Shown one piece after another: positions 841-52,385 of a stretch of 64,000 nt of DNA (position 1 is its first letter; every line of letters begins with the position of its first letter). Under the pieces are notes generated by a model that saw only the letters and a list, made by a program, of their open reading frames with translations, was not told the origin of the DNA and did no database searches. Source of the stretch: Eledone cirrhosa. Taxonomy: Eukaryota. The DNA is taken from the NCBI GenBank assembly GCA_964016885.1, contig OZ024743.1, forward strand, positions 122,264,001-122,328,000, in the 5' to 3' direction. A program made the position numbers and the translations under genes.

Positions 841-1164
841 AACAAAGAAAATGTGGTAAGATACCAGGTGGACCATAACGCACCAGAGTACTCGATACTT
901 AGGGTAGTAGAGTGGGTAATAGGGAAAAAGTCAGGTTCCCGACGACTGAGCTCCAGCCGTTTCGTTAGTTCGCATCTGGGAAAAATGTCAAGACCCCGAT
1001 GGCTGAGCTCCGGTCGTTTCGACAGATATATCCGAACTAACGAAACGGCTGGAGCTCAGTCATCGGGGACCTGACTTTTTCCCTATTACTCCCTCTATTA
1101 CCCTAAGTATCGAGTACTCTGGTGCGTTATGATCCACCTGGTATCTTACCACACTTTCTTTGTT
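841..1164. mobile_element. Fold-back non-autonomous PLE-terminal unit (family A) between (TA)n tracts
   Basis: Arms ~841-972 and ~1033-1164 are reverse complements. The same sequence recurs at 8098-8260, 27185-27388 and 52196-52385. It carries only the GAAA-stem III half of a hammerhead. Confidence 0.75.
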
Positions 1165-1196
1165 ATACATATATATATATATATATATATATATAT

Positions 1197-2000
1197 CTAA
1201 GGCGGGTAAAATTCCCGAGATCCATGGACGAGTTCTCTCCAGCGGTCTCTGTCCCTCATTATCGCTGCCCTGTCCTGCGTCTCCAACAGACCAGTGTCTG
1301 TCCTTAGGGCATCAACATACGTTAACCTTGGTTTTCCTCTTCTAGTGTGTCCATGTAGGGGCTCCCACAGGAGCACTGAGTGCAATGTCAACTCTGGATG
1401 TCGGTGAGCATGTCCAGCTAACCTCAGTCTCCTCTGTGTCACTTTTGAGCTGACTTTTGGGATGCTCCCATACAGCTCTGAGTTTTTCATCCTCAGTGTA
1501 TACTGATTAATGTTCAGAGCCATCCTCAACATTCTCGTGTAGCATCCATCCACCATCTGAGTGAGTTTCTTGGTCAGTGTCCAAGTCCCAGACCCATACA
1601 GCAGCACAGACTCCACTACAGGACTCTGGCTTTACTGTAGCACCGGCTCAGAGCAGGAGGGTTAGGACGAAAAAGGTATCGGATGCTGAATTTGCCGACG
1701 ACATAGTTTTGGTGACAAATACAGTGAGGGAGGCAGAGGATTTGATGCGGGAGGTTGAGACTGAGAATGAATGAGACTAAAACAAAATATCTGGTAGAGA
1801 ATGTTGAGAAGCCAGAGGGGATCACTAATGTAGGCGGGAAGCCGCTAGAATTGGTTGAGGGCTTCCTGTATTTGGGAGCAAAGATTGGGAATACGGAAGA
1901 TGATGTGGTTGAGAGGAAGAGCAATGCCTGGGCGGCGTGCCACAGCTTGAGATCGGTGTGGAAGTCGGACCTTCGTAGAGACCTGAAAGTCCGCCTCTTC
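1197..2000 (-). mobile_element. RTE-clade LINE 3' fragment with inverted 5' segment
   Basis: Minus 1616-1197 encodes VESVLLYGSGTWTLT...RRLRLAGH (RTE RT C-terminus, ending at a stop codon). Plus ~1620-2000 encodes the preceding RT part (EFADDIVL...FLYLG...LKVRLF). Flanked by (TA)n. Confidence 0.9.
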
Positions 2001-2061
2001 ATATATATATATATATATATATATATATATATATATATATATATATATATATATATATATA

Positions 2062-2450
2062 TATGTAAGTATGTATGTATGTATACGTACATACATATAT
2101 GTATACAGACGTACAGTAGTATGTATATATATACACACATGCACATATATATATATATATATGTACGTATCGGTTTACCGAACATTTATTATAATGCTCG
2201 GTTTGTTTGTTTGTAACAAACTGATTTATTTTAGTTGGTCTAGCTTATAACCAAACAAACCGATCATTATAATAAATGTTCGGTAAACCGATACGTGCAT
2301 ATATATATGTGTGCATGTGTGTATATATATACATACTACTGTACGTCTGTATACATATATGTATGTACGTATACATACATACATACTTACATTTAAGTAA
2401 GTGCCGTACTAAGAGTGAGAAATGACATTTCGTTTCATTCTATTCCATTT
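2062..2450. mobile_element. Fold-back PLE-terminal unit (family D)
   Basis: Arms ~2062-2210 and ~2250-2393 are inverted, followed by a unique terminus to ~2450. The homologue at 46930-47490 contains an HHR. Confidence 0.7.
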
Positions 2451-2464
2451 ATATATATATATAT

Positions 2465-2770
2465 ATGAAAACAGGGAGAAAGAGACGATTATTAGGAAGA
2501 AAAAAATATTTTTTCCCTTTATATTTATTTCTTTTTTCTGAGTTAGAAAATGATTAAAAAGAAATATTTTACTTTGTGTGAAGTGTTAAGGCATCAGTTG
2601 ATTTATTTATTAATTAACAATGGCATTTATTTATCTATTTATATATTTAATAATTGTAAAATATTTCGTTTTAATCATTTTCTAACCCAGAAAAAAAGAG
2701 AGAAATAAATAAAAAGGGGAAAAATATATTTTTCTTCCTAATAATCGTCTCTTTCTCCCTGTTTTCATAT
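2465..2770. repeat. Inverted repeat with ~105-bp arms
   Basis: 2465-2572 (atgaaaacagggagaaagagacgattattagg...) is the diverged reverse complement of 2656-2770. Confidence 0.8.
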
Positions 2771-2842
2771 GGGGTCGATAAAATAAAGTACCAGTAATGT
2801 ACTGGGTAATTGCTGGCCTTGTGCCAAAAGTAGAAACAATTA
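2771..2842 (+). mobile_element. tRNA-derived SINE, 5'-truncated
   Basis: ggggtcgataaaataaagtaccagtaatg...ggccttgtgccaaaagtagaaacaatt matches the 3' half of the full copies. Confidence 0.85.
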
Positions 2843-2919
2843 TATATATATATATATATGTATATATATATATATATATATATATATATATATATATATA
2901 GAGAGAGAGAGAGAGAGAG

Positions 2920-49710: not shown

Positions 49711-49972
49711 CATATATACATACACACACATACGCACACACATACGCACACACACACGCACACACACGCACACGCACGCACGCACACACACACACACACA
49801 CACACACACACACACACACACACACACACACACACACACACACACACACACACACACACACACACACACACATAAGTATATATATATATATATATATACA
49901 TATATATATAAGGCACACACACACACAATATATATATATATATATATATATATATATATATATATATATATA

Positions 49973-50806
49973 TACTATATTATATTTTGAGATTAAACTC
50001 TCAGTCGTTTACAATTAATCAGTTCCAAGAAAGAGGCATTTCCGAGCAGTTAAATACATATTATACATTAATATATATGATAAACACAAAACGTGTTTGC
50101 ATTGCAACAGACAAAGTTAGCTATCAATGAAATAAACTAATTAAAGTGAATACAATTTGTCTGTCTCGATATAAGTCAATAAAGACAAGCTTATATTGGC
50201 AAAAGCCGTGATTCCTGGACAAATCTAAATTTCAAAATCCAAACCCGCTCCGTAGATGAATTTGAACTTCGAAACCTAAATATGTTTCGCAACGATGGTA
50301 CATGAATTGAAAAATAAAGAGAATCGAAATGGAATTGAAATAAAAAGTGAAATATCCAAATCTTCTGTGCTTATCAACAGGAATCCAGTAAAATTAGTAC
50401 ATTCCACCATCAAAAATTTTGCAGGTCTGACTACATGTGTGTGTAGCCAGCCAAACTAGCCGTCCCGCATTCCCGGTGCTAGAAATAACAGCCGTTTATA
50501 CGGGATTAAAGATCAGCTCTACAGTTAAGGAGCAATATACTATATTATATTTTGAGATTAAACTCTCAGTCGTTTACAATTAATCAGCTCCAAGAAAGAG
50601 GCATTTCCGAGCAGTTAAATACATGTTATACATTAATATATATGAGCAGGAATCACGGCTTTTGCCAATATAAGCTTGTCTTTATTGACTTATATCGAGA
50701 CAGACAAATTGTATTCACTTTAATTAGTTTATTTCATTGATAGCTAACTTTGTCTGTTGCAATGCAAACACGTTTTGTGTTTATCATATATATTAATGTA
50801 TAACAT
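49973..50806. repeat. Unit with direct plus inverted internal duplications between (TA)n tracts
   Basis: 49973-50080 is repeated at 50537-50645. 50058-50217 is inverted at 50647-50806. Confidence 0.85.
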
Positions 50807-50999
50807 ATATATATATATATATATATATATATATATATATATATATATATATATATATATATATATAAATATATATGCATGAAGTTCAGTAAATCCGAAG
50901 AAAACTTGTGAGAGAACCAAAGCCACCACTCAATGCAGAGGAGCAGAGTGTATACAATAAGAACAAAGTGATGTTACATAGGAGATTTATTGCTTAATC

Positions 51000-51087
51000 C
51001 TGGTTACAAATGTTTCCCAAACAGCTGGCTCGTGATCTGGTTTGGCACCCCAGACCAGACTCCAAGTCTGCCTGATCCTCAGACCAG
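51000..51087 (-). ncRNA. Hammerhead ribozyme motif with ~60-nt stem II
   Basis: Minus: ctggt-CTGAGGA-tcaggcag...ctgtttgg-GAAA-catttg-TA-accag. Confidence 0.8.
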
Positions 51088-51094
51088 TGTTAAC

Positions 51095-52160
51095 ACAACA
51101 AAAATCACATCAAATCTGTGGACGAGTGCTTTCCACCCTCGCATAGATACCATAAACTATTCAACCAGCACACCGTGAAGTTCTCATTCTACACCATGCC
51201 CAACCTTGCGGAGATCATTGCCTCCAGCAACCGTAAAAAGCTACGGTACCTCCATATTGACCGTACTGGGAGGGTTGTCGACGGGTCGGAACTCCCGAGG
51301 AGAGGTATGGCCACCGTTCCATCCATCGTAAATAATCGGAACCCCCCAGTGTAATATTCCCTCCTTCGCATCAAACACCGCACCCTACGGCACTCCTGTT
51401 AGATCTCTGACGAACTGCAACTGCAGATCCCCCCCCCCCCCCGACTGCCCCCTCAACAGCCGCTGCAGAGTCTCGTGAGTGGTCTACAGCTGCATGGTCT
51501 CCACCGAAAGAAACGAATTTGTGTATGTGGGTTCCACAAGTACTGAGTTCAAATCCCGCTTCCATAACCACATGTGCTTCTTTAGACACAGAAGCAAGAT
51601 GTCCAACACTAGTCTAGCCGAGAGTGCACGTAGAGGCTCAAGGACGAGAACCGGAACTTCAAATTGAGGTGGAAAATTCTCCGTTTTGCGCCCCCCGGGG
51701 GTTGGGCAGCGAGGTTTGTCGGCTCTGCCTCTGTGAGAGTGTGGAGATCCTCAAGCTACGTGGGCGGGCGATTAACTCTATGTTCGAGATTCTGAGTAAT
51801 TGTATGCATCGAAGAACCCATCTGTTCGCCCATCTCGCAGGTGCGGGCACCGCGATGGACCGCTGTCTTCCTTAGTGAGCTACCGACCCTTTCCTGCCAC
51901 TGTATTGTAATACAACAGGACGAAACATAATAGCATCACTGATGATGTCACAGGTGTGCGACGAAAGAATTCTGAGAGACTATATATATCTATATTTTTA
52001 ACTATTGGTCACTCAATGATAAACATTTATTGCCAGTTAACTTAACTATAGGTATATAAAATATACGAAAGCGAAAACCAACCCAAACCTAACAGTGAGG
52101 GTGTTTTATCATATATTTTTGACAATATTATAACAACATGACCCTCCACAAATATAACTT
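51095..52160 (+). mobile_element. PLE remnant (linker plus GIY-YIG) followed by an HHR-like motif
   Basis: DECFPPSHRYHKLFNQHTVKFSF; NCNCR...CPLNSRC; VYSCMV...YVGSTSTEFKSRFHNH; CRLCLCESVEI. HHR-like CTGATGA-tgtcac...gcgac-GAAA-gaattc at 51939-51973. Confidence 0.88.
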
Positions 52161-52195
52161 TATATATATATATATATATATATATATATATATAT

Positions 52196-52385
52196 AGGAA
52201 AAGAGTCAAGACCCCGACGGCTGAGCTCCGGGCGTTTCAACTGTTAGATCCGGACTAAGCCAGAAACGACCGGAGCTTAACCGCCGGGGTCCTGACTCTT
52301 TCCGATTACCCACTCCACTACCCTAAATATCGTGTACTCTGGTGCGTTATGGTCCACCTAGTATCTTATCACACCTTTTTTATAC
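52196..52385. mobile_element. Fold-back PLE-terminal unit (family A)
   Basis: Homologue of 841-1164, with arms ~52196-52238 and ~52263-52303. Confidence 0.75.

Follow-up and report, generated by a model that had tools for sequence, protein, structure and literature searches.

How does a stretch of genome come to be crowded with inverted repeats that lie among (TA)n runs and carry the ends of retroelements? The question is raised by a 64,000-nt window of Eledone cirrhosa DNA (assembly GCA_964016885.1, contig OZ024743.1, positions 122,264,001 to 122,328,000), in which an earlier sequence-only reading had picked out 14 fold-back units. Each named unit takes its number from the start position given there, and all coordinates are those of the window. 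We find that the units are 5'-truncated ends of endonuclease-positive (EN+) Penelope-like elements (PLEs), from about a dozen families and at least partly of the Hydra clade, and that each very probably represents PLE end products of one insertion event. Truncated EN+ PLE integration products made by a mixed route are the best explanation overall, and a moderately probable one; the mixed route taken by itself, two-site priming with fold-back at tight centres, stands evenly balanced between right and wrong.

The 14 named units proved to be genuine head-to-head inverted repeats by self-BLAST and by arm and family alignments. After microsatellite masking, self-BLAST of the window gave 22 local inverted matches (gap below 1.5 kb), compared with none in each of 10 block-shuffled windows, and 12 of the 14 named units were within this list. 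Unit 46930 was found by unmasked BLAST and arm alignment, and the diverged unit 52196 was visible only in the family alignment (arms 34/39). Arm identity across the named units ranged from 87 to 100% over 39-457 nt (132/141 in 841, 145/151 in 2062, 456/457 in 5913, 155/167 in 6924, 363/380 in 8264, 48/52 in 9148, 94/98 in 9331, 192/197 in 24325, 57/59 in 27185, 45/50 in 41131, 42/42 in 45332, 79/80 in 46930 and 159/160 in 49973). Five further fold-back units had been overlooked, at 2466-2767, 4252-4857, 4974-5490, 7655-8084 and 42123-43929. Counted by hand, the window contains about 19 fold-back units, compared with at least 10 pieces that are single-armed, tail-only or tandem. Eighteen of the units span a total of 10,391 nt, or 16% of the window; the claim that fold-backs are the dominant product was therefore fair.

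Near-universal bounding by (TA)n was likewise upheld. A (TA) run of at least 10 nt, at no more than 10 nt from the outer end, adjoined 25 of the 28 outer ends of the named units, compared with 5/44 ends of other repeats (1/26 ends of short interspersed elements, SINEs, and 4/18 other-repeat ends) and 1.7% of random positions. Enrichment over other repeats had been preset as a test; Fisher's exact p was 2e-11, an optimistic value in that the ends were placed by hand partly by the TA runs. The right end of unit 24325 lacks such bounding. Any target-site duplication would be masked by the (TA)n. That each named unit is TA-bounded on at least one side would also fit an inverted duplication arising after insertion, through breaks at (TA)n cruciforms and fold-back repair of flanking DNA; (TA)n is self-complementary and break-prone. 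The duplicated DNA, however, is PLE end sequence that halts at element-encoded sites, and none of the local inverted matches involves the 13 SINE copies or the remnants of long interspersed elements (LINEs), TA-flanked ones included. We regard this origin as very unlikely.

The PLE identity of the units, already proposed from the sequence, was borne out by hammerheads, a GIY-YIG endonuclease remnant and inverted truncated copies with one-sided tails. A strict hammerhead scan gave 4 matches, compared with 0-1 in each of 20 shuffles, and a relaxed scan with alignments predicted full or partial cores on the sense strand of families A, D, E, F, G and H, with weaker candidates in B and J. The hammerheads read outward, as had been described, as seen for the cores of 5913 and 8264 and for partial or variant ones in 6924, 9148 and family E. 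Rfam gave no match in the window at gathering thresholds. Coding sequence is kept by one of the 14 named units, 41131, whose broken endonuclease remnant (~41500-41925, plus strand) has a CxCX5C linker, no CCHH and a CxxC ahead of the conserved E and N. The Hydra clade is described by these very features, and we assign the remnant to it. Similar Hydra-type remnants occur at 28847 (single-armed, 28802-29568, minus strand, with a 157 aa open frame) and 51400; the linker has exactly five residues in 41131 and 28847 and a longer spacer in 51400, and CxH is intact only at 51400. By eye the remnants agree with the Hydra-clade supplementary alignment of PMC8557442. According to section 11 of that paper nearly all Hydra-clade families insert into (TA)n, a preference matched by the 25/28 ends found here. 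A HMMER library search with the 28847 fragment gave 3918 relatives at E <=0.001, and all 150 homologues among those listed matched the 41131 remnant as well. Pfam, run on 4 of the 150, returned one sub-threshold GIY-YIG match and weak unrelated matches in another, and word-based protein searches with the same fragment gave no match at either length setting.

All PLE copies in the window are truncated ahead of the reverse transcriptase (RT) core so that no RT region, on which the RWK and DKT motifs and an RT-based placement in the Hydra clade depend, remains, and the Pfam RVT_1 matches in the window sit in unrelated LINE remnants. Two other identities were ruled out: a fold-back DNA transposon or miniature inverted-repeat transposable element, as members of one family differ in length and in the position of the centre and have asymmetric outer ends, and the Naiad clade (N-terminal endonuclease, no canonical hammerhead), as the endonuclease here adjoins the 3' end and hammerhead cores are present. 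A separate single-armed GIY-YIG remnant at 3453-4142 (minus strand) has a CX4CxxC linker and CCHH-like residues and is Neptune-like by motif; single-armed 3' ends with hammerhead cores at 44600-44950 (minus strand) and 52554-53500 (plus strand) are related or similar to it.

The sequence-only reading described each unit as a tailed long arm with a shorter inverted copy. This stood in part: a one-sided tail was found in 12/14 named units, while unit 841 has tails on both outer arms and unit 9331 on neither, and the two-arm layout applies to most units but not to 841, with an inner third piece, or 49973, both of which are made of three pieces. Among the 17 arm pairs displayed, the short arm halts at an element-encoded AT, TAT or ATAT that merges into (TA)n, or in family A at a bare T before (TA)n, and independent copies of one family end at or near the same site. 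Each family thus has two fixed 3' ends, a distal, tail-bearing one and a proximal one at AT/TAT/ATAT. Of four public runs (X1, X4, X7 and X9, the last from a sample and study different from X1), X1 and X9 contained the family E end at 8154 followed by (TA)n, in 194 contigs and 3476 raw reads (agreement 0.84), respectively, and one X4 contig contained the family A end at 5981 followed by (TA)n. Tails are 58-160 nt long, and ~35 nt in family G. Tail-only pieces starting at or near the proximal site lie at 4141-4198, 9820-9887 and 50540-50645. Folding of whole tails was mostly unremarkable, with z below -2 in 3/17.

Within the tails we found a bulged hairpin of the form RYUC, an upper stem-loop, a 2-nt bulge (UU/UA/UC) and GARY, in most cases at 3-10 nt to the 3' side of the short-arm terminus (17 nt in 9148); in unit 5913, for example, it occupies 5957-5975 on the minus strand, 5-6 nt past that end. 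Its lower stem shows compensatory forms that pass the descriptor, ACUC/GAGU in families A, E, F and I, GCUC/GAGC in L and GUUC/GAAC in B, and families H, J and K have looser versions. The descriptor returned 15 fully paired loci compared with a shuffle mean of 5.5 (maximum 11 in 100), an excess that is not independent, as the descriptor was derived from 11 of these 15 loci with family copies included; loci lacking full pairing numbered 12, compared with 12.5 in shuffles. Four loci were new, at 21978 (within a B-like end with a hammerhead-like core), 4714 (within unit 4252), 536 (adjoining a TA run) and 44276. By eye, the full motif is present in 3/6 of the published Hydra consensi, Hydra-2_Amil, Hydra-2_Ajap and Hydra-1_Ajap (at the 5' end), and a partial motif in 2/6; none was seen in the Hydra-1_Obim consensus. 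A MAFFT alignment did not align the hairpins by structure. No description of the tail hairpin was found in a literature search whose reach stopped short of subscription journals and Repbase.

The centres of the units are of several kinds. Arm spacers are no longer than 10 nt in five of the 14 named units (5913, 6924, 8264, 9148 and 27185), units 2062 and 52196 have small palindromic centres, and the remaining named units have spacers of 54-744 nt. All four family E insertions are truncated just 5' of the hammerhead GAAAC. Further centres came from 4 of 11 public runs aligned to 5530-9720 at 88% likeness. Among the best-supported 15 of 443 joints, which were displayed, 13 are family-A inversion centres at other loci, represented by 48 X1 contigs (depth 87-1172), one X7 contig and two X9 reads. 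All 13 are within the hammerhead at 6832-6856, 11 of them no more than 6 nt from perfect symmetry, and several carry 1-6 extra letters; depth drops 13-fold immediately inward of this region. At other loci in the genome, family-A centres thus cluster at the hammerhead's 5' side, a clustering that is partly selected because the displayed joints are the best supported. Family E joints on opposite strands, 8101/8154 and 8110/8200, were set aside as ambiguous and not counted, since 8090-8101 is itself similar to the proximal end plus (TA)n in reverse complement, and the copy carries an insertion near 8200. Fold-back chimeras of library or assembly origin are barely credible as a source of the units. 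Unit 5913 is a near-perfect palindrome whose centre is spanned by no displayed piece, as could be expected of such a chimera, but arms differ by up to ~20% with indels, and the same junction type has high depth in X1 and recurs in runs of other studies, X7 and X9. Short stutters of 6-15 nt, repeated two to four times, were observed at centres and inside hammerheads or tails (8636-8645, 5118-5173, 5327-5352, 8096-8120 and 8188-8209) and may be RT slippage, recalling telomerase-like repeat addition.

How the two arms of a unit are related bears on how they were made. The variant pair 6144/6735 is common to both arms of 5913 and differs in 134532 of 134600 of X1 depth, and in the family alignment the arm pairs of F and most of E are closer to one another than to other copies. 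Four units, 24325, 41131, 45332 and 49973, have their templated inner extension on the arm with the tail; in 52196, 46930, 4974 and 5913 it lies on the arm without one, in 5913 by 4 nt. The mixed-family head-to-head pieces at 9820 and 50868 demonstrate that the two arms are not necessarily copies of one another. The sequence-only reading had proposed priming at a TA microsatellite followed by snap-back synthesis on the new cDNA. Spelled out, such a model has a single primer at the distal site that starts the cDNA, and a copy strand that ends at the AT-rich site inside the element because it anneals there to the opposite end of the target. The tight centres, the shared private variants, the TA-like overlap at the short-arm end and the inward extension of the tailed arm in four units are all consistent with this. 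The fixed short-arm ends, the tail-only pieces, the tail-free unit 9331 and the longer tail-less arms of 52196, 46930 and 4974 are not, and in 5913 the templated loop belongs to the tail-less arm (two X1 contigs with a loose end at 6438). Since a cDNA lacking the tail cannot serve as the template for one, one primer with snap-back requires later deletions to explain the tail-less-arm extensions. As a complete account we consider it decidedly unlikely.

A second possibility is that each arm is a first-strand cDNA primed at one of two opposing nicks and that the two were joined by their inner ends, with any symmetry due to a common stop or end of the RNA. In twin priming of L1, primers on opposite strands produce inversions as here; L1 inversions barely overlap, whereas the arms here are mostly full duplicates. 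Twin priming would explain the two fixed ends, the tail-only pieces, the mixed-family pieces 9820 and 50868, inner extension on the tail-less arm in four units and the tailed arm in four, and the clustering of centres at the hammerhead, and it accords with the in vitro behavior of a PLE, which cuts and extends both strands and has two RNA start sites that bracket the tail (PMC11167929). It would, however, require the coincidence of two independent stops to place the 4-10-nt centres of 5913, 6924 and 8264 170-457 nt from the end, and other copies run on past these positions. Pure twin priming is rather unlikely. Self-priming on an antisense template, proposed for Penelope elements of Adineta vaga, draws on the head-to-head geometry and palindromic junctions that are also the evidence of PMC3846280; it does not predict the fixed proximal end, and in the later in vitro work nicked DNA primed synthesis on sense RNA at two internal positions (PMC11167929). 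It appears highly improbable here.

The mixed route combines elements of these models. It is supported by the fixed short-arm ends with their TA-like overlap, the near-symmetric family-A centres in the hammerhead, the tight spacers, the private variants common to both arms and the in vitro start at two RNA sites with cutting and extension of both strands (PMC11167929). The GIY-YIG endonuclease would nick (TA)n on both strands, and reverse transcription would begin from one nick at the distal site and from the other at the proximal site, at the foot of the conserved bulged hairpin. Synthesis would often halt early, at the hammerhead. At tight centres (0-10 nt) one new cDNA would most likely fold back and be copied into the mirror arm, and we infer that such fold-back of one cDNA is the likely origin of the tight units. 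Loose centres would reflect two cDNAs joined at their inner ends, or a palindrome that later lost its centre. On a joint reading, which we advance tentatively as somewhat short of even, Hydra-clade and related PLEs would share the covarying bulged tail hairpin as a binding signal that sets the proximal RT start a few bases 5' of it, and the hammerhead fold would be the main stop that triggers cDNA fold-back, so that miniature hairpins would be the majority product.

Several observations weigh against the account of the units as PLE products of a mixed route. No contig or read among those displayed spans the centres of this locus, and neither a full-length element nor an empty site was seen. 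The arm pairs of B, D and 52196 are not clearly closer to one another than to other copies, shared private variants could also stem from a single source RNA or from subsequent gene conversion, and subsequent loss of central sequence obscures which arm was longer. As to identity, scans and alignments gave no hammerhead or open reading frame (ORF) in family K or unit 2466, families J and I are linked to PLEs through the tail motif only, and folding z-scores of the 8 hammerhead candidates were weak, with 2/8 below -2.

The units and pieces are described here in order of position. Unit 841 (family E, 841-1168) consists of an antisense tailed piece (841-978), an antisense tail-less piece (~979-1030) and a sense tailed piece (~1025-1168) and carries just the 3' half of a hammerhead-like motif. 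Unit 2062 (family D, 2064-2449) has a tail-less left arm, a mini-hairpin at the centre and a tailed right arm (tail 2392-2449). The older fold-back 2466-2767, with arms 79% identical and a common end point, is a candidate PLE product. The family A tail-only piece at 4141-4198 (minus strand) starts at the proximal site and adjoins the GIY-YIG remnant at 3453-4142. Unit 4252 (4252-4857), located via the tail-hairpin scan, comprises three pieces between (TA)n runs, two of them antisense with tails and the third sense without one. In unit 4974 (family G, 4974-5490) the left arm is long, lacks a tail and carries a stuttered hammerhead core, and the short right arm has a tail of ~35 nt (arms 101/105); the TA runs around the unit, 4858-4973 and 5491-5528, contain the same AATT interruption, resembling a microsatellite duplication. 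In unit 5913 (family A, 5910-6897) the tail (5910-5980) is followed by arms at 5981-6437 and 6442-6898 around a 4-nt loop, with hammerheads at 5997-6047 (minus strand) and 6832-6882 (plus strand). Unit 6924 (family F, 6924-7338) has a tailed left arm, a 4-nt loop and a tail-less right arm, with a variant hammerhead core in both arms. A perfect 38-nt palindrome at 7623-7660 links an F-family piece to a G-family piece, and unit 7655 (family G, 7655-8084) has a partial inverted arm (79/81). The family E single arm at 8096-8257 (plus strand) shares its truncation point with the other E copies. Unit 8264 (family H, 8268-9122) has a tail-less left arm, a 10-nt stuttered centre and a tailed right arm (tail 9021-9122), with outward-reading hammerheads on both arms. 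The centre of the family A mini-unit 9148 (9145-9307) falls within the hammerhead core with an 8-nt spacer, and in unit 9331 (family B, 9332-9727), where neither arm has a tail, the 206-nt spacer is part of the left arm. The mixed piece at 9820-10211 joins a family A tail alone, antisense (9820-9887), to a tailed family B copy, sense (9888-10211).

Farther along, unit 24325 (family I, 24327-24890) has a tail-less left arm and a right arm that continues into a tail with the hairpin motif, and unit 27185 (family E, 27187-27385) a tailed left arm, a 4-nt spacer and a tail-less right arm. Unit 41131 (family F, 41133-42056) consists of a tail-less left arm with a hammerhead and a tailed right arm with the endonuclease remnant; both arms carry deletions, and there is an inner 19-nt inverted match (~41449-41467 / 41523-41542). 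Unit 42123 (family L, 42123-43929) has a tailed left arm, a (TA)n interruption and a tail-less right arm (64/68). Unit 45332 (family J, 45172-45703) has a long left arm with a tail of ~160 nt and a short tail-less right arm, and unit 46930 (family D, 46932-47496) a short tailed left arm and a long right arm that lacks a tail and bears a hammerhead at 47229-47253. Unit 49973 (family K, 49974-50804) is made of an antisense tailed arm, an antisense tail-only piece (50540-50645) and a sense tail-less arm. In the mixed piece at 50868-51982 an F-like hammerhead end, antisense, faces a Hydra-type ORF remnant, sense, that ends in its own hammerhead-like core; its two ends are non-homologous. In the old family E unit 52196 (52197-52385) the tail-less left arm reaches ~17 nt further inward, and the right arm is tailed.

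Other repeats share the window. The SINE-like family of ~200 nt, used as the control set and seldom beside (TA)n, has 13 copies or fragments, including those at 14547, 15199, 18894, 29513, 33156, 40069, 56174, 59374, 62404 and 63015. LINE remnants lie at 36170-38060 (plus strand; long open frame containing RVT_1 and zf-RVT, end in a (CTAT)n run), 31470-35350 (plus strand; split by a SINE), 1197-2000, 47600-48340 and 48420-49700. A TA-bounded family with a CTGACGA-like core was observed at 595-660, 23393-23459 and 23908-23965, the last two forming a direct repeat around ~450 nt, and tandem arrays of 110-170-nt units at 46138-46704 and 58241-58958 are satellite- or Helitron-like in appearance only.

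Much of this architecture is already in print, and inverted copies and microsatellite bias of PLEs had been recognized as known features (PMC8557442, PMC3846280). PMC8557442 describes an adjacent inverted 5'-truncated copy, a one-sided tail of 30-40 bp and insertion into (TA)n, and states that how these form is unexplained; PMC3846280 inferred self-priming from palindromes at head-to-head junctions, PMC4209133 covers PLE hammerheads and 10.64898/2026.07.22.740005 covers non-LTR retrozymes. The units resemble canonical EN+ PLE complex insertions (PMC8557442, PMC3846280) in the head-to-head copy, one-sided tail, palindromic junction, terminal-repeat hammerheads, partial tandems and AT-rich targets; they differ in being mostly 160-1000 nt long and dense (16% of the window), with tails mostly of 58-160 nt rather than 30-40. 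With the Hydra clade, including Hydra-1_Obim, they share CxCX5C, the lack of CCHH, CxxC/CxH around E and N, hammerheads and (TA)n insertion (PMC8557442), but, unlike the published members, keep coding sequence only in 41131 and the neighbors 28847 and 51400. The PMC8557442 supplement did not contain four short motifs taken from families A, E and F, which therefore look like other families. Poseidon of Anolis carolinensis is alike in vitro in its two start sites bracketing the tail, AT-rich cleavage of both strands and stem-loop initiation; it belongs to a different clade, and hairpin products and a conserved bulged hairpin are absent from the parts of its description consulted (PMC11167929). 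Non-LTR retrozymes are likewise hammerhead-bearing, non-coding derivatives of PLE ends, but they are direct tandems, whereas the present units are inverted and truncated at varying points (10.64898/2026.07.22.740005). The window also holds a retrozyme-like array at 53508-54203, with ~2.4 direct tandem copies of a ~290-nt family G monomer with a hammerhead core.

Taken together, layout, tail, (TA)n targeting and the notion of self-priming have all been published, and the window shows a known PLE insertion pattern at unusual density, to which we add the clustering of family-A centres at the hammerhead and the bulged tail hairpin with compensatory changes. No survey of such hairpins in this kind of genome was found in the literature search. 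With many young copies of about a dozen families, models of formation can be separated by counting junctions, and if the joint reading of hairpin and hammerhead is true, such genomes would offer many thousands of junctions as a natural data set on how inverted PLE structures form. For mutation in vitro, the tail hairpin offers a precise target. If transcribed, the hairpins, at ~16% of such DNA, could supply much double-stranded RNA.

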